From a virus (taxonomy: Duplodnaviria > Heunggongvirae > Uroviricota > Caudoviricetes), in the IMG/VR virus record IMGVR_UViG_2645727775_000011, positions 1 through 7,277 of that record: a stretch of 7,277 nucleotides of DNA; one strand, 5' to 3'. The notes beneath the pieces were generated by a model, which searched no databases, was not told where the DNA came from, and saw only the letters and a list, made by a program, of their open reading frames with translations. Made by a program: the position numbers and the translations under genes. Numbering within the stretch: the first letter of the stretch is position 1; each line of letters begins with the position of its first letter. Of the stretch, positions 1 to 7,277 are shown in pieces.

Positions 1-25
1 TTTATCTAGCTATAAAGCACATCTA

Positions 26-217
26 TTGGATATGCATTTTCAATACATTGATAATTTAACGGAAGAACCAATACCAGTTGAAGATGATCTTATTTCCTAT
101 GCTTTAGACACAGGAAGTTTTTACCATCCAGAAACTGGCGAATTGGTTGATAATTTTAGCCAGTATCTTTATCCATACTTTACTCCTTCGAGTCTTTTGG
201 AGAGTCTGCATGAGTGA
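26..217 (+). CDS. Small acidic ORF, possibly the 3' end of a longer gene running off the window start; translationally coupled to the downstream nuclease-like gene
   Basis: ORF track 26..217 begins at a TTG. The same frame has no stop between position 2 and 25, and the first in-frame ATG (32) has no Shine-Dalgarno, so a 5'-truncated longer gene is likely. Its stop TGA (215-217) overlaps the ATG (210-212) of the next gene. The product is acidic and aromatic-rich. Region is AT-rich. Confidence 0.4.
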   Translation: MDMHFQYIDNLTEEPIPVEDDLISYALDTGSFYHPETGELVDNFSQYLYPYFTPSSLLESLHE

Positions 218-851
218 TGTAAACATCTGTACTGCAGACCTTCAATCATTAATTAGAATGGATCCTGAATTTAGGGGAATGGTTCAAAGAAAATTAGCTG
301 CAGACAAAAATATTTTTGTAAAGCAACTCTATGAAGATTTAGACGACGCTATTCAGAATTTAGAAAATGACAAACACTTCTATCAAGATGCTAAGTGGGG
401 AGAGGACGAGCTAACAGCGTCGATCAAAAATTTCCTGAAAGGTAGGTTTTATGATGTTGAACATGATACTCAACATGGCGGTCACGTTGATTTATTAGTT
501 AAACATCAATTCGGAAAATTCGAATGGATCGGTGAAGCAAAATTATGGAGAGGCCCCAAATCTATTCATAATGGCTGGATTCAGCTAACCGAACGTTACG
601 GCACGGGTACGTCACGTGACGATCATGGAGGAATTCTAATTTATATAAAGTCTGACAAATCAGCAGTAAAATTCAATGAATGGAAAGAATTTTTCTCTAC
701 GACCGTTTCGGACGCAGAAATTGAAGCGGAAGGCTCTCCCCTCCGCTTTAAGAGTATCACAAAGCATCCAGCAACAGCGCTTCCATATCATGTAAGACAC
801 ATGGGAGTATCCTTATACCATTACACTGGTAAAAAAACCGCTGACTCTTAA
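210..851 (+). CDS. Putative PD-(D/E)xK-fold nuclease (about 213 aa): restriction-endonuclease-like, toxin or defence effector candidate
   Basis: ATG at 210 is preceded by GGAG (199-202) at 7 nt; the track's TTG start at 147 is rejected. The translation contains GGHVDLLV followed 16 residues later by EWIGEAK, matching the hhD...ExK core of PD-(D/E)xK nucleases, with a preceding Glu-rich helix. AT-rich composition. No database search was possible. Confidence 0.55.
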   Translation: MSDVNICTADLQSLIRMDPEFRGMVQRKLAADKNIFVKQLYEDLDDAIQNLENDKHFYQDAKWGEDELTASIKNFLKGRFYDVEHDTQHGGHVDLLVKHQFGKFEWIGEAKLWRGPKSIHNGWIQLTERYGTGTSRDDHGGILIYIKSDKSAVKFNEWKEFFSTTVSDAEIEAEGSPLRFKSITKHPATALPYHVRHMGVSLYHYTGKKTADS

Positions 852-1369
852 CTGGTAATTGCTATATATCCAGTCAAAAAACCTAAGGCTTTTTGCAATC
901 TTTTACGAATTGTTCCATCTGAACATCCTTGTTGCTTTGCAATAGCACGAAGAGATAAACCAATCACGAAATGAGCAACAATTAACTCATATTCTTGTTG
1001 CTTATATCTTTCTAACCTAAGGATACTAATGTCAATAATTCGCCCTTCATCATTGCTGCACTGACGACGTGATTTTTTACCATGAGGAACAACATTTTTA
1101 TATTTATCAGCTATTTCCTGCCAATCAATAGAACTATTACCAGCCACAACCCAAGCCCCCCAATCGTCTAAAATCTCACATATATCAACATTACTATCCA
1201 TCTGTTTTTTATTTTCTATTTTGAAATAACCAAGCAGCATTCTAGCCATTGTTGTTATTTCTATACTTGTAACTGACTCATAAGCATGAGGAGAAACAAT
1301 TCTCTCATCACTTAATGCCCAATCACTAAGGTTTGCTATTTCCAACAATCGTTCTTTAGTTATTCCCAT
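848..1369 (-). CDS. Phage antitermination protein Q-like (about 173 aa) with C-terminal sigma-70 region-4-like HTH
   Basis: ATG at 1369 is preceded by GGAG (1378..1375) at 5 nt; the track's GTG at 1381 is probably not the start. Motifs WGAW, RRQCSND and CSDGTIRKRLQKALG recall the Q antiterminator family (QuuD-like), from memory. It is the last gene of the minus-strand early operon. Its stop overlaps the stop of the convergent plus-strand gene (848-851). Confidence 0.55.
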   Translation of the reverse strand: MGITKERLLEIANLSDWALSDERIVSPHAYESVTSIEITTMARMLLGYFKIENKKQMDSNVDICEILDDWGAWVVAGNSSIDWQEIADKYKNVVPHGKKSRRQCSNDEGRIIDISILRLERYKQQEYELIVAHFVIGLSLRAIAKQQGCSDGTIRKRLQKALGFLTGYIAITS

Positions 1370-1380
1370 TATTATCTCCA

Positions 1381-1396
1381 CCGCCCTTTCGGGCGG
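1381..1396. promoter_or_regulatory. GC-only stem-loop (CCGCCC-TTTC-GGGCGG) directly upstream of the Q-like RBS
   Basis: Perfect 6-bp G/C stem with a 4-nt loop. On the minus-strand transcript it ends 3 nt before the Q-like Shine-Dalgarno. No strong U-tract follows on either strand. Confidence 0.35.
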
Positions 1397-1501
1397 CCTC
1401 CTGATGATTTGAGGGTGCAGGAATCCCTCCGGTTAAGGATTTAATAAAAATCGTTTCTGATTTAAATCTTCAGTATTTAGTTGTTAGTCGGTTTATAGCC
1501 T

Positions 1502-1813
1502 TTATGCTTCGACCTTATTTCTCAGCCATACACAAACCGGGCCATCTTCGGTGTCATGTATTGAACCAATAAACCATCCATTGCCCTCTGGTCGTTCCGG
1601 TTCCCATGCAGAAATATCAGCATCACACGCATCAAGGTCAGCACATCCTTCATCTCTGAAGCAGAGGACGTATTGAAGATTATTTTCCTCCATCCAGGCG
1701 TTAAACTCTTCCGTTGAAATATATTCCCGACCGTCACAGAATTTTTCATATTCAGGATGCGTCCAGCAGCCATATTCATCACGTACTACTGGTATTTCTT
1801 TAATTTCATTCAT
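1502..1813 (-). CDS. Hypothetical phage protein (103 aa), acidic with 6 Cys
   Basis: ATG at 1813 is preceded by GGGAG at 7 nt. Clean ORF; the overlapping alternate-frame ORF 1522..1782 is rejected. It occupies the nin-like position between the replication gene and Q. No recognisable family. Confidence 0.6.
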   Translation of the reverse strand: MNEIKEIPVVRDEYGCWTHPEYEKFCDGREYISTEEFNAWMEENNLQYVLCFRDEGCADLDACDADISAWEPERPEGNGWFIGSIHDTEDGPVCVWLRNKVEA

Positions 1814-2056
1814 TTCTGTTCTCCCACGTTTTCAGACTTTCACCACAGAACGGACAAAATGAAACCCGAACTGGTAATTTAGAAAATTCACCGGAACGCA
1901 ACATCACAAAATCAGGACCGCGAGTTAAACTCTCATTTCAGATTTTGTATATCAGCAGACCTTTTCGCATCGTGTATTCAGCATCACGCTCAAGGGACTT
2001 TGCCAGTGCTGCACATGGTTCTATCTTGTTGCCATTAACCTGGCATTTTGATTCAC

Positions 2057-2479
2057 TCACCGCACCACCTCCTCAAAATTCCCCTGATAAAACGCCAGTA
2101 CGCGCTGCATAGCTTCGCTCTTCCGGCACTCGCGACAGATTATGTTCTGACGCCTGTCGTAGCGACGTATTTCTCCGTCAGGTAATGACCAGATAAGGTC
2201 CGGATCAACCGCAGATGGTTTCTTCAGCTTTGCCCTTGAGAGCTTTTTACGGGCATTTTGCCAGTCCTTACGCGCCTGTTCAGACGGGAATAACCCGTAA
2301 CCAGAGTTGTATACATCGCCACTGGCAACCAGCTCTCTGGCCAGAACGCTCATCAGATATCTTGTTGCCCCAGTTTTAGTTTCCAGTTGTCGTAACGTCT
2401 CGCGCCCACTCTGGCGTACGAGTTCAACAACCTGCCCTTTAATTTTTTCCCGCTCTTCTTGTGTAAAAACTTTTGCCAC
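2057..2479 (-). CDS. Hypothetical basic protein (140 aa) with possible winged-helix region and C-terminal CxxC
   Basis: GTG start at 2479 is preceded by a perfect AGGAGG at 5 nt. It lies immediately downstream of the initiator gene in the same operon. The K/R-rich sequence suggests nucleic-acid binding. No recognisable family. Confidence 0.6.
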   Translation of the reverse strand: MAKVFTQEEREKIKGQVVELVRQSGRETLRQLETKTGATRYLMSVLARELVASGDVYNSGYGLFPSEQARKDWQNARKKLSRAKLKKPSAVDPDLIWSLPDGEIRRYDRRQNIICRECRKSEAMQRVLAFYQGNFEEVVR

Positions 2480-2519
2480 AAGCCCTCCTGAAAATTACCT
2501 CATGACCAGAAATTAACAC

Positions 2520-3452
2520 TTACCCCCTGAAGCCCGGCGGAATTTCAGTGTCCGGTTCAGAAATGTGATTCACGCAACGCTGCGCAGGCGAACGCCCCAG
2601 GCGGATAACCAGTTCATCCCATTTTTCCCGGAGTTTTGCCGGACTCATGATGTTTTTTACCCAGAACGAATCCCGCTGGAGACGCCCAAACATTTCACAA
2701 ATTTGTCTGTGAGTTCTGCCATCCAGCATCCGCATTGTGCGAACGTCATTGGCCCATGCTGTCCAGTTGGGTTCTTTCGGTCTAGTGATCTCGCCATCAT
2801 AGCTGGCCGCCTGCTCGTAAAGACTCACGATTCGTCCCCAGATCCACTGTGCGCACACCAAATCTTCCTGACTTCCCCACTGGCGTTTTTTCGCACTGAA
2901 CACAACCGCGTCAGGGTGTCGGGTTAAAAAATCCTGTTCAGCCGTCTGCGGGTCCGGTTGCGAAGCGTCCGGACAAGAAGATCTTTTATCTGACGGATCA
3001 GGTTTTAATACTGACGGATCGGGGTCAATCATCGCCCCCCTAATCGGCAGTTTTTTATCAACAGTTGATCCATCAAAATTTGACGGGTCAACTGTTAACG
3101 GGTCATTTTTTGCCGGGCTAATTTTTCTTTTCGGTTTATATGACTCACGCGCCGCCGCCGCAGCTGCTTCGAGTTTTTCCACATTAAGCCGATAGATATT
3201 GCTTACATTACGCCCACCGACCTTACGCTCTTCCTTCGTCAGCCAGCCCTCTTTCGCCAGTTCTGCAATAGCCGATTTCACTGTGGATTCACTTCTTGCA
3301 CCGATCTGACGCCGGATAGTTTCAATGGCAGGCCATGACACGCCCTCGTCATTGCTGTAGTCTGCAAGACGGGCCATAACCGCCACCCTGGATAAGATCA
3401 TGCCGGTGAAGGCGCACCCTTCCCAGACAAGACCATGAAGCTTGCTGCTCAT
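2520..3452 (-). CDS. Replication initiation protein (lambda O-like architecture: N-terminal HTH, P/D/S-rich linker, C-terminal domain)
   Basis: ATG at 3452 (MSSKLHGLVW...) is preceded by GGGGG; the track's GTG at 3467 has no Shine-Dalgarno. The N-terminus has a winged-HTH-like segment (SWPAIETIRRQIGARSESTVKSAIAELAKEGWL). The middle is a low-complexity Pro/Asp/Ser linker encoded by repeated DNA. Its position after the cro-like and ydaT-like genes fits a lambdoid replication module. Confidence 0.7.
   Translation of the reverse strand: MSSKLHGLVWEGCAFTGMILSRVAVMARLADYSNDEGVSWPAIETIRRQIGARSESTVKSAIAELAKEGWLTKEERKVGGRNVSNIYRLNVEKLEAAAAAARESYKPKRKISPAKNDPLTVDPSNFDGSTVDKKLPIRGAMIDPDPSVLKPDPSDKRSSCPDASQPDPQTAEQDFLTRHPDAVVFSAKKRQWGSQEDLVCAQWIWGRIVSLYEQAASYDGEITRPKEPNWTAWANDVRTMRMLDGRTHRQICEMFGRLQRDSFWVKNIMSPAKLREKWDELVIRLGRSPAQRCVNHISEPDTEIPPGFRG
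2990..3160. repeat. Iteron-like direct repeats plus adjacent AT-rich tract inside the initiator gene: putative origin of replication
   Basis: Motif TGACGG(A/G)TCA occurs at 2991-3000, 3012-3020 and 3081-3090, with TAACGGGTCA at 3096-3105 and a near-inverted copy TGATCCATCA at 3066-3075. A T-rich stretch follows (3105-3145). This parallels lambda ori lying within O. Confidence 0.4.
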
Positions 3453-3474
3453 AAAACCCCCGAACACCGTGCTT

Positions 3475-3900
3475 TTAGTGCATCACCACAGCATTCCCTG
3501 CCGGGCCGCCGCGATTCATCTGGTCATACAAAACAACCGCTGACGCAACAAAATCATCGACATCCTTCACCAGCCGATCCCTCCGTTCGACGATCTCACG
3601 GTAATATTCAGAACTGTGGCTGCGCATACGGGCCACCAGCAAAGGCGGCATCGCCTTTTCGATCGCCGGTAACAGAGCCTGCATTTTTTCAACAGCATCA
3701 GGGGTGTCTTTATCCAGCCAACGGAAAATTTTCTGGGTATTACGGGCCAGGGCTTCCGGATGGCTGTCGTCATACAGTTCCGGGAACGTCATTCCCAGCT
3801 CGAAATACGCTTTGGTAATTTTCGCAGCCGGCACTTTTTCGCCGTCCGGATGCGCCCAGACATTCATCGCCATGCGGATGTGTTCATGCTTGATTTTCAT
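3475..3900 (-). CDS. ydaT: YdaT-like protein (141 aa) of Rac-type prophages
   Basis: ATG at 3900 is preceded by AGGAG at 8 nt. The N-terminus MKIKHEHI matches my recollection of E. coli YdaT. It overlaps the 3' end of the upstream cro-like gene by 17 nt, as in ydaS-ydaT pairs. Confidence 0.65.
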   Translation of the reverse strand: MKIKHEHIRMAMNVWAHPDGEKVPAAKITKAYFELGMTFPELYDDSHPEALARNTQKIFRWLDKDTPDAVEKMQALLPAIEKAMPPLLVARMRSHSSEYYREIVERRDRLVKDVDDFVASAVVLYDQMNRGGPAGNAVVMH

Positions 3901-4165
3901 GAATCAAGCTCCTAGAAAGTGGTTGTGTTAACGTTTTGGTATCTTCCAGCTCGGGCCAAATATTCATCCAATCAAAAGGCCTTAGTTGCTGACGTGTAAC
4001 TTCACCATTACTGGCTCGCTCAATAAGGACACATAACGATGCCCCTAACACTTGACCTTTACTCAATGCCTTTCTTAGATAACCGATGCTGGTACCACAC
4101 TCGCATGCAAACATACGCTGTTCATCTGACGAAAGAGAATTGAGAAATATTCTTAATTCTTCCAT
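3884..4165 (-). CDS. ydaS: Cro-like transcriptional regulator, YdaS family (93 aa)
   Basis: ATG at 4165 is preceded by GGAG at 5 nt. The segment CVLIERASNGEVTRQQLRPFDW resembles the YdaS/Cro-like family as recalled. It is divergent from the CI-like gene across a 100-bp operator region. Confidence 0.65.
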   Translation of the reverse strand: MEELRIFLNSLSSDEQRMFACECGTSIGYLRKALSKGQVLGASLCVLIERASNGEVTRQQLRPFDWMNIWPELEDTKTLTQPLSRSLIHENQA

Positions 4166-4174
4166 AGCTACTCC

Positions 4175-4272
4175 TTAGTAAACACAGCAAAGAATACCCG
4201 CAGGTAAACAAAAGACAATACCCACAGGTTGTTTACCTTGCGGTAATCGCATCTATTATTTACCTATGGACA
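4175..4272. promoter_or_regulatory. Divergent promoter-operator region (oR-like) with TACC-N4-GGTA palindromes
   Basis: Perfect sites are TACCCGCAGGTA (4195-4206) and TACCTTGCGGTA (4234-4245); weaker copies are TACCCACAGGTT (4219-4230) and TACCTATGGACA (4261-4272), the last overlapping the repressor ATG. A candidate promoter for the repressor has -35 TTTACC (4232-4237) and -10 TATTAT (4254-4259), with no Shine-Dalgarno before ATG 4266, suggesting a leaderless mRNA as for lambda cI. Confidence 0.5.
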
Positions 4273-4685
4273 AATATGAATTTAGACGACAGCAACTCAT
4301 CAAAATTCGTGATGAGAAATGCGATGGTAAAGCGGTTAACGTGGCCAGAAAGATCGGGCGCGAGCCTTCTTATGTATCAAGAATGTTGTACCCAGAGGGG
4401 AAAAAGGGAAAAAAACGGATCGCTGATGATATGGTGGAGATTATCGAAGAGTCCTTTGGGTTACCCCGGGGATGGATGGATGGTATCGTTTCATCATCAA
4501 CGAACACAGCCTCCAGTTATGAAACAAGGGTTCTAACGCCACGACAACGTATTTTTTTAGATCTCTTAGACGAACTGCCAGAAAGTGAAGCGGATAAATT
4601 ATTAAAAACTCTTGAAGAGAAAAAACAGTATTACAATATGATCTACGAAGAAATCCGTAAAAAGAAAGCACAAAACGCATCATAG
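4266..4685 (+). CDS. CI-like prophage repressor (139 aa; DicA/RacR-like, XRE-type HTH)
   Basis: It is divergent from the cro-like gene. An HTH lies near residues 20-40 (AVNVARKIGREPSYVSRM). The C-terminal LPESEADKLL segment recalls DicA-type repressors. The alternate-frame ORF 4276..4536 is rejected. Confidence 0.7.
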   Translation: MDKYEFRRQQLIKIRDEKCDGKAVNVARKIGREPSYVSRMLYPEGKKGKKRIADDMVEIIEESFGLPRGWMDGIVSSSTNTASSYETRVLTPRQRIFLDLLDELPESEADKLLKTLEEKKQYYNMIYEEIRKKKAQNAS

Positions 4686-4727
4686 CTCACCAAACAACTA
4701 GTCACCAGTTAAGACACCGCAAAAATT

Positions 4728-4764
4728 TACCCATAGGTATTTACTTTTTAAATACCTATGGGTA
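4728..4764. promoter_or_regulatory. Perfect 16-bp inverted repeat built from two TACC-N4-GGTA sites: oL-like operator and/or intrinsic terminator downstream of the repressor gene
   Basis: Positions 4728-4743 pair perfectly with 4749-4764 around a 5-nt loop, and a T-rich run follows (4765-4775). The arms are TACCCATAGGTA and TACCTATGGGTA, the same motif as in the cro-cI intergenic region. A possible promoter overlaps it: -35 TTTACC (4726-4731) and -10 TTAAAT (4748-4753). Confidence 0.45.
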
Positions 4765-4950
4765 TCCTTCTTTTCATACCAACCCACCCCGCCCCACAGA
4801 ATGCAGGGCAATACTTCGAGTTACCAGGCAGTGGTCAGGGGTTAAGTAGCCAGCCCGAGGCGTAAGAACATGACGGCAGGGTTCAACTTTAATAACTATG
4901 CAGCAGGTTTTTGTTCCGCTACCCCGGCGTTAAGGGGAAATGAGGTCAAC

Positions 4951-5103
4951 ATGGATATGCTCAATCTTGGCAACAACGAATCTCTGGTATGTGGCGTGTT
5001 CCCCAACCAGGACGGCACGTTTACCGCGATGACGTATACCAGAAGCAAAACGTTTAAAACTGAAGCTGGCGCGCGTCGCTGGTTAACCAGAAACACTGAC
5101 TGA
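4951..5103 (+). CDS. ydfA: YdfA-like small protein (50 aa), first gene of the dicB-type operon
   Basis: ATG at 4951 is preceded by GAGG (4942-4945) at 5 nt; the track's upstream ATG at 4870 is less likely. The sequence MDMLNLGNNESLVCGVFPNQDGTFTAMTYT matches my recollection of Qin YdfA. Length is close to the 51 aa of YdfA. Confidence 0.55.
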   Translation: MDMLNLGNNESLVCGVFPNQDGTFTAMTYTRSKTFKTEAGARRWLTRNTD

Positions 5104-5114
5104 TGAGGTTGACG

Positions 5115-5516
5115 ATGGAATTTAAAGATTTACCAGTACCATTCCAGGAAATGGCATCGAATGTGGTTCGCTCTCAACTGGCGACTCTTGACCTGAGTAC
5201 CGTAGAAAAAGAAACCATCGATACTATATCCGGTAACGTGCGTCGTGCCTTTATAGGTCTGTATGAAGAGAAGCGCCTATTCGGCGGACAGAATTCGCCT
5301 GAAAACAAGAATCAAGCAAATGATGAGAAGCTGAAACACATTATCGCCTTACTTTTGGAAGACGCAAAACGTTTACAGCAACTGGAACCAAATGCAGGCA
5401 CAGAGGCCCGCATTTGGATTGCCATGAAATCACTCAAATGTGAAAGCAGTGATTATTTCAAAACAACAATTAAAACTACTCAACTTTCGGGAGAGCTACT
5501 GAAGAAATTGCCATAA
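5115..5516 (+). CDS. Hypothetical protein (133 aa) at the ydfB/ydfC position of the dicB operon
   Basis: ATG at 5115 is preceded by GAGG (5105-5108) at 6 nt; the track's start at 5103 overlaps the upstream stop. The stop of the ydfA-like gene (5101-5103) lies just upstream, indicating an operon. The 3' end overlaps the convergent antisense ORF by 41 nt. Confidence 0.55.
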   Translation: MEFKDLPVPFQEMASNVVRSQLATLDLSTVEKETIDTISGNVRRAFIGLYEEKRLFGGQNSPENKNQANDEKLKHIIALLLEDAKRLQQLEPNAGTEARIWIAMKSLKCESSDYFKTTIKTTQLSGELLKKLP

Positions 5517-5754
5517 GAGCATGGTCTTTCTCTTGTTCTGCAAGATGAGCATTAATACCTGGTATGGTTTTTTCAAATTTATCTATCTGTTGAATAACAA
5601 CTTCGCGGTATACGTTTGTTTTTGTACCACCAAGCGCAGCCGTTAATGCAGAAAGCATATTTAGTATCATATCAGTGCGATATGAAAGAATCCTGATAGC
5701 TTCATCTTGTTTTTCAATAATAGATTGCAGGGCCTCAATTTGCTTTTTATCCAT
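5476..5754 (-). CDS. Hypothetical AT-rich antisense ORF (92 aa), predicted helical, inside the dicB-type operon
   Basis: ATG at 5754 is preceded by a perfect AGGAGG (5765..5760) at 5 nt. The clean 93-codon ORF sits in an AT-rich block between GC-richer flanks. The track's upstream start at 5793 is rejected. No recognisable family. Confidence 0.5.
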   Translation of the reverse strand: MDKKQIEALQSIIEKQDEAIRILSYRTDMILNMLSALTAALGGTKTNVYREVVIQQIDKFEKTIPGINAHLAEQEKDHALMAISSVALPKVE

Positions 5755-6085
5755 TTCACCCTCCTGAGGGTTGGTAATTAAGGAGTTCTCCACGGGTCAG
5801 GTGGAGTGCGTGCGCCGGACACGGGTGAACATCCGGCACTGACAGTTTACTGAAAGGATATGTCCCTGAAAAGTCAGGGCATAACGCGAAAGCGCACGGC
5901 AAAATTGGTCTCTCTGTACGGTGTCGTTAAATTTAGTTCGACCGTGCGCTTCCGGTTGTGGCACTCCGCGAAATGGCGCGGCGGTAAGTATGGCGGGGTT
6001 ATTCCTTCCCCGTTGAGGACACCGGGTTGTCAGGTTGACCATACGCTTAAGCGACAACCCCGCTGCAACGCCCTCTGTTATCAAT

Positions 6086-6140
6086 TTTCTGGTGACGTTT
6101 GGCGGTATCAGTTTTACTCCGTGACTGCTCTGCCGCCGTT
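6086..6140 (+). ncRNA. dicF: DicF small RNA (ftsZ-targeting sRNA of Qin-type prophages)
   Basis: TTTCTGGTGACGTTTGGCGGTATCAGTTTTACTCCGTGACTGCTCTGCCGCC followed by a T-run (6139-6143) matches my recollection of E. coli DicF nearly exactly. It lies about 170 nt upstream of dicB, as in the K-12 operon. Confidence 0.75.
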
Positions 6141-6312
6141 TTTAAAGTGAATTTTGTGATGCGGTGAATGCGGCTGAGCGCACGCGGAACAGTTAAAACC
6201 AAAAACAGTGTTATGGGTGGATTCTCTGTATCCGGCGTTAATTGTTAACTGGTTAACGTCACCTGGAGGCACCAGGCACCACATCACAAAATTCATTGTT
6301 GAGGACGCGATA

Positions 6313-6501
6313 ATGGAAACGTTATTACCAAACGTTAATACGTCTGAAGGTTGTTTTGAAATTGGTGTCACTATCAGTAACCCTGTATTTACTGAAGATG
6401 CCATTAACAAGAGAAAACACGAACGGGAGCTATTAAATAAAATATGCATTCTTTCAATGCTGGCCCGTTTACGTCCGATACAAAAAGGATGCTGGCAATG
6501 A
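6313..6501 (+). CDS. dicB: Cell division inhibitor DicB (62 aa)
   Basis: ATG at 6313 is preceded by GAGGA at 7 nt. The product METLLPNVNTSEGCFEIGVTISNPVFTEDAINKRK... matches recalled DicB sequence and length. It follows DicF. The track's extended start at 6208 is rejected. Confidence 0.8.
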   Translation: METLLPNVNTSEGCFEIGVTISNPVFTEDAINKRKHERELLNKICILSMLARLRPIQKGCWQ

Positions 6502-6689
6502 ATACAGCATTTGCACTTGTTCTGACAGTTTTTCTTGTTTCCGGAGAGCCAGTTGATATTGCAGTCAGTGTTCACAGGACAATGCAGGAGTGTGTGACTG
6601 CAGCAACCGAACAGAAAATTCCCGGTAACTGTTACCCGGTCGATAAAGTTATTCACCAGGATAATAACGAAATCCCGGCAGGTCTTTAA
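6498..6689 (+). CDS. ydfD: YdfD-like small lysis/membrane protein (63 aa)
   Basis: ATG at 6498 overlaps the dicB stop (ATGA) and is preceded by AAGGA. It has an N-terminal hydrophobic segment (AFALVLTVFLVSG) and two Cys. Length and position match ydfD downstream of dicB. Confidence 0.6.
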   Translation: MNTAFALVLTVFLVSGEPVDIAVSVHRTMQECVTAATEQKIPGNCYPVDKVIHQDNNEIPAGL

Positions 6690-6781
6690 AACAGTTCCGT
6701 AATAAACATCCGGTTTCATTCTTATATGCCAGCAATGGCAGGGATTTGTTCACCCTTAAATCTGTAATGAGGTAAAACAAA

Positions 6782-7277
6782 ATGAGTAAAGTCTTTATTT
6801 GCGCTGCTATTCCTGATGAACAGGCCATAAAAGAAGATAGCGCTGTTGCGGTGGCCACTGCCATTGAAGCTGGTGATGAGCGTCGCGCACGCGCAAAATT
6901 TCATTGGCAATTTCTGGAGCAATTCCCTGCAGCTCAGGACTGCGCTTATAAATTTATTGTCTGTGAGGATAAACCCGGCATACCCCGCCCTGCCCTCGAT
7001 TCCTGGGATGCTGAATATATGCAGGAAAACCGCTGGGATGAGGAGTCTGCTTCCTTTGTCCCGGTTGAGACTGAATCAGATCCGATGAACGTCACTTTTG
7101 ACAAGCTGGCCCCTGAAGTACCGAACGCTGTCATGGTTAAGTTCGACACATGTGAAAACATCACCGTTGATATGGTTATTAGCGCACAGGAATTGTTGCA
7201 GGAAGACATGGCAACATTCGACGGACATATCGTTGAAGCGTTGATGAAAATGCCAGAAGTTAACGCCATGTATCCGG
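6782..7277 (+). CDS. ydfE: Acidic hypothetical protein, YdfE-like; 3' end runs off the window (at least 165 aa)
   Basis: ATG at 6782 is preceded by TGAGG (6768-6772). The frame stays open to the window end and was not in the ORF track because it lacks a stop. The product (MSKVFICAAIPDEQ...) is Asp/Glu-rich. Position after ydfD matches ydfE in Qin. Confidence 0.5.
   Translation, partial: MSKVFICAAIPDEQAIKEDSAVAVATAIEAGDERRARAKFHWQFLEQFPAAQDCAYKFIVCEDKPGIPRPALDSWDAEYMQENRWDEESASFVPVETESDPMNVTFDKLAPEVPNAVMVKFDTCENITVDMVISAQELLQEDMATFDGHIVEALMKMPEVNAMYP

Follow-up and report, generated by a model that had tools for sequence, protein, structure and literature searches.

The 7,277-bp stretch of viral DNA analysed here (positions 1 to 7,277 of the Caudoviricetes record IMGVR_UViG_2645727775_000011 in IMG/VR, hereafter the window) very probably contains the immunity region of a lambdoid prophage of the Rac/CP-933P type, with a 139-amino-acid (aa) protein as its CI-type repressor. 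Judging from sequence and its conservation, we regard it as highly likely that this repressor acts on a family of palindromic operators, TACC-N4-GGTA (TACCNNNNGGTA), placed as right (OR) and left (OL) operators on the two sides of its gene, and that it would in this way gate both divergent early operons. The window is 99.9% identical to a prophage adjoining ompW in Escherichia coli O127:H6 E2348/69, and the segment 4560-4776 is present at a coverage of at least 80% in 822 of 5426 complete E. coli genomes (~15%), including that of CFT073. The observations that carry this reading are the statistics of the motif, its positional conservation, its co-inheritance with the repressor DNA-binding domain and the promoter hexamers with which it overlaps.

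An exact scan of the window yielded four perfect matches to the motif, at 4195, 4234, 4728 and 4753, all of which flank the repressor gene, as the original prediction had stated for a CI-like gene. The number of perfect sites expected by chance in the window is 0.04, and four were reached in none of 200 shuffles. Three sites (OR1-OR3, one of them imperfect) fall within the 100-bp intergenic region between the cro-like gene and the repressor gene, while the OL sites start 43 nt past the stop codon of the repressor gene, which is monocistronic. Two weaker copies had also been claimed for the intergenic region. The one at 4219, with one mismatch, is retained as OR2; the copy at 4261-4272 (TACCTATGGACA) has two mismatches and is kept only by close E. 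coli alleles, and it was rejected as a fourth operator, being changed in a Salmonella allele (TACTTATGGATA) and missing from the wider family.

The positions of the sites are conserved well beyond E. coli. The comparison covered 25 loci amounting to 191 kb (191,243 bp), namely the window, phage mEp043 and 23 loci from a genome scan for the repressor DNA-binding domain, the latter ranging from Yersinia and Arsenophonus to the betaproteobacterium Ferrovum; four extra loci, with the same site layout, were added by exact protein look-up to give 29 loci for counts of site classes. Across the 25 loci, 82 of the 83 perfect sites lie either at OR offsets from the repressor ATG (OR1 at -72/-73, OR2 at -47/-48, OR3 at -32/-33) or in a downstream pair, 25-26 bp apart, that brackets a conserved promoter; about three perfect sites would be expected by chance (191,243 / 4^8). 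The divergent repressor/cro geometry is conserved in more than 20 loci, and wherever in the genera compared this DNA-binding domain occurs, TACC-N4-GGTA accompanies it. The complete cassette (repressor DNA-binding domain, Cro, OR1-3 and OL) was also seen in Ferrovum myxofaciens (L019) and in a metagenome-assembled genome of Hydrogenophilaceae (L022), its occurrence in Betaproteobacteria implying spread across bacterial classes.

Differences between the site classes are themselves conserved. OR1 is present at -71 to -75 (mostly -72/-73) in 27 of the 29 loci, with half-sites that are almost invariant in all 27 and a variable N4 centre, which follows the pyrimidine-purine pattern YRYR in 26 of 27. 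The right half of OR2 is imperfect in all but three of 22 loci and ends in T (GGTT) in 15 of them, and the centre of OR3 is YRYR in one of 28 loci and non-YRYR in the other 27. The conserved OR2 defects and OR3 centres suggest a built-in affinity hierarchy with cooperativity, which would operate via indirect readout. In five Klebsiella loci (L005, L007 and L009-L011), OR1, OR3 and OL are kept, OR2 is replaced by TTTGCTATATTTT, and there is no divergent Cro homologue within 4 kb; this subgroup thus surrounds the shared DNA-binding domain with another regulatory arrangement.

The downstream pair has a conserved layout in 25 loci: immediately after GGTA of the first site comes TTGACn or TTTACT, and a spacer of 17 nt separates this from a TAnnnT hexamer that starts within OL1. 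In mEp043 the pair is located between the cI operon and gene N, with TAGACA-17-TATATT (10 of 12 consensus matches) at the homologous position, and this promoter ahead of gene N, bracketed by the pair, identifies the downstream pair as OL and its promoter as the left promoter (PL). The fixed offsets, the 82 of 83 sites, the mEp043 pair before gene N, and the PaaR2/YdaS (PMC8630535) and RacR (PMC9638921) analogues all support the earlier proposal of an oR/oL layout with control of a replication operon and a dicB-type operon.

Natural swaps between phages point in the same direction. Phages Tritos and Evi match the backbone of the window from ~4776-4784, the predicted PL start, onward; upstream of it they carry different repressor DNA-binding domains, and their repeats at both OR and OL are different also, being GTAC-based in Tritos and GTTTAGT-based, of the CP-933P type, in Evi. 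The joint change of DNA-binding domain and repeats argues that the operators travel with the repressor.

The intergenic sites overlap candidate divergent promoters, as had been anticipated, with OR1 and OR2 on the right promoter (PR) and OR3 on the repressor maintenance promoter (PRM). A promoter scan of 4100-4900 returned TTTACC-16-TATTAT, the PRM candidate, as the sole promoter-like site. Aligned with each other, the window's PR and PL correspond in each block; PR is predicted to start at ~4184, with a Shine-Dalgarno sequence, AGGAGT, read at 4175-4170, and PL at ~4775-4776, from sequence reading and alignment with PR. Across the loci PR also has a constant layout, in which GGTA of OR2 on the minus strand is followed by TTGACn and the -10 starts at the TA of OR1. 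The PR -35 reads TTGTCT in the window, that is, in the E2348/69 allele, and TTGACT in CFT073, E2863, STEC299, L028 and the allele from Salmonella; the E2348/69 version of PR is therefore possibly a weakened one. Just upstream of OL2 there is a conserved A-tract (CAAAAA), at 4721-4725 in the window and at the equivalent place in most loci; located at about -50 to -55 relative to the PL start, it is possibly a feature of the UP-element kind.

No start codon precedes the repressor ATG (4266) in its open reading frame (ORF). As first described, this ATG has no Shine-Dalgarno sequence, and its A follows the TATTAT -10 (4254-4259) by 7 nt. A TAnnnT hexamer lies 6-7 nt ahead of the repressor ATG in 25 of the 29 loci, and a Shine-Dalgarno-like 4-mer was found in just four of 29; a recurring -10-like hexamer, usually with no ribosome-binding sequence beside it, fits a leaderless message. 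For PRM, the probable transcription start is the A of the repressor ATG (4266), and the repressor mRNA would then have no leader. The mRNA of lambda cI transcribed from PRM is leaderless, as has been shown experimentally. The earlier suggestion of a probably leaderless repressor mRNA, now with a predicted start site, is strengthened by the recurring hexamer and by two analogues, in that the PaaR2 repressor mRNA is leaderless by 5' RACE (PMC8630535) and the strongest racR promoter yields a leaderless transcript (PMC9638921).

The 139-aa ORF is labelled 'hypothetical protein' in RefSeq, while its match in the PHROG collection, phrog_5736, is a 'transcriptional regulator'; a Pfam search and a direct PDB sequence search of the repressor returned nothing useful. 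Over residues 1-73 the protein shares 65-82% identity with the N-terminal domains of S24/LexA-type CI repressors of 221-242 aa from Salmonella, Klebsiella, Pantoea, Edwardsiella, Yersinia and other genera, including the cI of the functional phage mEp043. No S24 peptidase domain was found in the 139-aa protein by Pfam, alignment or model, and, when aligned with S24-type homologues that carry PF00717, its C-terminus has a 50-residue helical segment instead. For residues 88-139 the resemblance is to the C-terminal part of the CI of phage Tritos, also 139 aa long and of like architecture; identity in the C-terminal region is 39% overall. Similarity of the whole protein to PaaR2 of CP-933P, for which the sequence (MQKKE...) was taken from phage Evi, is distant, with 23% identity over 90 residues (pairwise E=1e-8), and a direct phmmer search gave no match to the structures of the PaaR2 N-terminal domain (7nkv, 8c3k). 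The AlphaFold model (mean predicted local distance difference test score of 85) consists of a helix-turn-helix (HTH) domain that a disordered linker (76-87) connects to a helical hairpin (92-138), and its best PDB matches are Rep of phage SPC32H, at the top, and XRE-type HTH proteins. When the window is compared with P0031-P0116 and L025, one DNA-binding domain and operator set is found joined in some cases to an S24 peptidase domain (221-242 aa, with the cI of mEp043 as an example) and in others, the window among them, to a helical domain that is short (137-139 aa). In some E. coli genomes, products of 135-136 aa (P0010 and P0019) start with MNLDDSNSSKFVM, the beginning of the ORF that opens at the out-of-frame ATG at 4276 (4276-4536 in the window, +1 frame), and later return to the frame of the repressor, apparently as alleles of it with a frameshift.

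Table 1. Operators, promoters, genes and other elements of the window (positions in the window; strand where given).
Feature	Position	Strand	Details
OR1	4195..4206		TACCCGCAGGTA; perfect; fills PR spacer and first two bases of the -10
OR2	4219..4230		TACCCACAGGTT; one mismatch; abuts PR -35; centre -41.5 from proposed PRM start
OR3	4234..4245		TACCTTGCGGTA; perfect; overlaps PRM -35 (TTTACC) and spacer; centre -26.5 from PRM start
OL2	4728..4739		TACCCATAGGTA; perfect; abuts PL -35
OL1	4753..4764		TACCTATGGGTA; perfect; fills PL spacer and first two bases of the -10
Perfect 16-bp inverted repeat	4728-4743 / 4749-4764	+	5-nt loop; OL2 and OL1 with A/T flanks
PR candidate	4191..4218	-	-35 TTGTCT (4218-4213), 16-nt spacer, -10 TATTCT (4196-4191)
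PRM candidate	4232..4259	+	-35 TTTACC, 16-nt spacer, -10 TATTAT (4254-4259)
PL candidate	4740..4768	+	-35 TTTACT (4740-4745), 17-nt spacer, -10 TATCCT (4763-4768)
Repressor gene	4266..4685	+	139 aa; HTH (residues 1-73), disordered linker, C-terminal helical hairpin; phrog_5736
cro-like gene	3884..4165	-	93 aa; YdaS-type HTH; phrog_35; first gene of PR operon
YdaT/CII-like gene	3475-3900	-	Left of repressor, after cro-like gene
TTGATT-N6-AATCAA	3890..3907		TTGATTTTCATGAATCAA; perfect, 0 mismatches; cro/ydaT junction, spanning end of cro-like gene and start codon of ydaT-like gene
ydfA-like gene	4951-5103		DUF1391; first gene of PL operon
DicF small RNA	6087-6138		Rfam RF00039, 72.5 bits; upstream of dicB
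dicB	6313-6501		

In the proposed switch, a dimer of the N-terminal HTH would most likely bind the 12-bp palindrome TACC-N4-GGTA together with its A/T flanks. Occupancy of OR1 and OR2 would cover the PR spacer and -10 and the edge of the -35, and turn off the cro-like gene, the CII-like ydaT and the replication genes; OL2 and OL1, arranged likewise around PL, would turn off the operon of ydfA, DicF and dicB, such that both early operons would be silenced in a lysogen. OR2 is centred at the position that OR2 of lambda has relative to PRM, which would allow activation, and OR3 on the PRM -35 would provide autorepression. Binding, the order of affinities, activation and the transcription start sites are predictions of this model, and several points weigh against it. 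The PR and PL of the window have 8 of 12 matches to the sigma-70 consensus, below the threshold of the scan. The centres of OR2 and OR3 are only 15 bp apart, compared with 23-24 bp in lambda, and at such a spacing the lambda logic of activation and autorepression may not be transferable. Cro is co-inherited in most loci, and a sharing of the sites between Cro and the repressor is assumed. A literature search found no binding, footprint or transcript data for the 139-aa repressor, and a search with motif strings found no paper in which TACC-N4-GGTA is an operator.

The original prediction had described a perfect 16-bp inverted repeat at 4728-4764, which is present as stated, and had suggested two possible roles for it, as operator of the next promoter and as terminator of the repressor gene. 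The first role is supported, the pair bracketing PL in 25 loci, whereas the second is unproven, the perfect form being a minority allele with a poor terminator score. It is conceivable, although we lean against it, that in this E. coli lineage the OL2-OL1 repeat is also a functional stop or a 3'-stabilising hairpin of the leaderless repressor transcript, acting as an intrinsic terminator or through OL-bound repressor that blocks RNA polymerase arriving from PRM. From the stop codon at 4685 up to the following gene, nothing else resembles a terminator, and a simple terminator scan accepts the repeat. As RNA it has a predicted stability of -22.5 kcal/mol (z = -7.3), making it the strongest hairpin at this position among the 25 loci; the window is without a canonical terminator upstream of OL2, while such a terminator lies 32-175 nt upstream (in most cases 36-101 nt) in 11-13 of 25 relatives. 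Several allelic changes preserve pairing on the plus strand (A-U, G.U, G-C, and U-A to C-G), and read-through into the dicB operon would presumably be harmful.

Against a transcript-end function, the stem is AU-rich, with G-C pairs at five of 16 positions, and the tail (UCCUUCUUUU) begins with UCC. The score by a d'Aubenton-Carafa-type discriminant is -5.0, compared with +2.1, +0.9 and -1.4 (L016) for the three terminators of relatives that were scored. Hairpin strength is uncorrelated with a missing upstream terminator, and the T-tail is lost in alleles L028 and L030. The repeat was rejected as a conserved hairpin of the family, since complementarity of the N4 positions at OL (1.44 of 4, family-wide) is not above that of the untranscribed OR1-OR2 control (1.6 of 4), and YRYR centres frequently pair with one another by chance. 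An apparent compensatory change in alleles L028 and L029 looked promising and was likewise discarded after a survey of ~150 viral and metagenome contigs, in which the commonest allele was CATG/TATG, with one G.U pair, the perfect form of the window was in the minority, and pair-breaking alleles (CATG/CACA, CACG/TATG and CATG/CATA) were found as well. From these sequences, the perfection of the repeat is probably mainly an incidental by-product of two palindromic operators 25 bp apart. The A-tract upstream of OL2 supplies the hairpin with a T-run on the minus strand. A fuller version of the transcript-end proposal, which we think rather improbable, holds that the E. coli lineage lacks the dedicated terminator of many relatives and uses the OL2-OL1 pair as stop or 3' hairpin, so that a single element of 37 bp would combine a promoter and a double operator with a terminator or roadblock. 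If true, repressor at OL would, through its occupancy, set the leakage of PRM transcription into the toxic dicB operon.

That the sites are bound only by the Cro-like (YdaS-type) protein or another factor, and not by the 139-aa repressor, is very improbable. A Cro homologue, 43-73% identical, is co-inherited with the sites, lying divergently beside the repressor in 17 of 24 related loci, and in CP-933P both YdaS and PaaR2 bind the same region (PMC8630535). However, the other seven loci, without a Cro homologue within 4 kb, retain sites beside the repressor gene, the five Klebsiella loci among them having OR1, OR3 and OL, which argues that the motif tracks the repressor DNA-binding domain. In addition, the site offsets are fixed with respect to the repressor ATG, and the short and S24-type repressors have in common just their DNA-binding domain and these sites. 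A clustering of the motif by chance or through base composition, conceivable for a motif with only eight specified bases, can practically be dismissed in view of the shuffles and of the homologous positions of 82 of 83 perfect sites in 191 kb across genera and classes.

The cro-like protein matches the 'antirepressor protein Cro' of PDB 8c7k/8co2 (E=1e-10), and further left, on the minus strand, an O-like replication gene, a DUF977 gene and a gene for a Q-family antiterminator follow. To the right, DicF is positioned before dicB, which confirms a dicB-type operon under PL; DicF was the sole match in an Rfam scan of the window. Genes for an exonuclease, xis and int are located just past the right end of the window. 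A 105-aa ORF of phrog_18692 (function unknown) at 5476-5793 on the minus strand falls within the PL operon in antisense orientation, with the ydfA-like genes on one side of it and DicF on the other. The element at the cro/ydaT junction is of the type footprinted for the CII analogue YdaT of CP-933P (operator OM, near PRE933P; PMC9986795). By this analogy it is likely a control site of the PRE type in the same switch, implying that establishment control of the CII type is conserved here.

The closest characterised system is the PaaR2/YdaS/YdaT switch of CP-933P in E. coli O157:H7 (Jurenas et al. 2021, PMC8630535; Prolic-Kalinsek et al. 2023, PMC9986795), with which the window shares its prophage backbone, homology resuming at the PL start. 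The two have in common a divergent intergenic region of about 100 bp (97 bp in CP-933P, 100 bp here) with several palindromes over PR and PRM, a short peptidase-less repressor in which a linker joins the HTH to a helical tail, a Cro of the YdaS type (E=1e-10 to 8c7k), YdaT as CII analogue, with TTGATT-N6-AATCAA at the same junction, PL with operators downstream of the repressor operon, and a leaderless repressor mRNA, established by 5' RACE there and predicted here. In contrast, CP-933P has four 18-bp palindromes based on GTTTAGTAA and three OL sites, compared with three OR and two OL sites of TACC-N4-GGTA in the window; the DNA-binding domain of the window is common to S24-type CI repressors, and the paaA2-parE2 cargo is not present in the window. 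The Rac switch (RacR/YdaS/YdaT) is similar in having three inverted-repeat operators in the racR-ydaS intergenic region and a repressed ydaS-ydaT operon (PMC9638921). Its operators, which the original prediction had proposed for comparison, are (T/A)TAGGC-n3-GCCTA(T/A) and differ from those of the window; RacR itself is unrelated, larger and has two HTH domains (PMC9638921).

Among the S24/LexA-type CI repressors of Enterobacterales and their phages, mEp043 has a cI DNA-binding domain 65% identical to that of the window (up to 82% in others), a Cro 73% identical, the same motif at offsets of -72, -47 and -32, and an OL pair 25 bp apart. The repressors of this group differ in their C-terminal S24 peptidase domain, which predicts RecA-dependent induction. 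They are further set apart by a CII of the lambda type, by the gene N that follows PL and by a GC-rich terminator of its own ahead of OL. The lambda paradigm comprises OR1-3, OL1-3, PR, PRM and PL, acted on by CI and Cro. The window resembles it in the divergent cI/cro arrangement, palindromes on PR and PRM, OR1 and OR2 24 bp apart, OR2 centred near -42 of PRM, OL/PL downstream of the cI operon and a repressor mRNA that is predicted to be leaderless, like that of cI. It departs from lambda in the absence of an S24 autocleavage domain from the repressor, an OR2-OR3 distance of 15 bp, not 23, two OL sites, not three, another half-site sequence and a YdaT-type CII analogue; there is also no N gene after PL in the prophage of the window, although mEp043, with the same DNA-binding domain, has one. 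The best structural match to the repressor model is Rep of Salmonella phage SPC32H (PDB 5d50 / 5d4z; Foldseek E=6e-4), with just 17-24% sequence identity and a TM-score of about 0.46. SPC32H Rep, a short repressor that likewise lacks a peptidase domain, loses its activity through an antirepressor; the window yielded no such protein.

The finding is a new immunity specificity in a known lambdoid (CP-933P-type) switch, a sound but ordinary example by which the lambda/CP-933P paradigm is conceptually confirmed and not extended. It provides a precise operator model for this specificity, and it gives a predicted function and a DNA target to a RefSeq 'hypothetical protein' whose prophages are present in ~15% of the complete genomes of E. 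coli, those of the model pathogens E2348/69 and CFT073 among them. One DNA-binding domain and operator set can be combined with an S24 domain that is SOS-cleavable or, alternatively, with a helical domain that is short. Since the DNA-binding domain and operators are shared and the C-termini differ, the two kinds of prophage should be homoimmune and induced by different routes, and cryptic prophages of the window type are predicted to confer superinfection immunity against mEp043-like phages while themselves responding to another route of induction.

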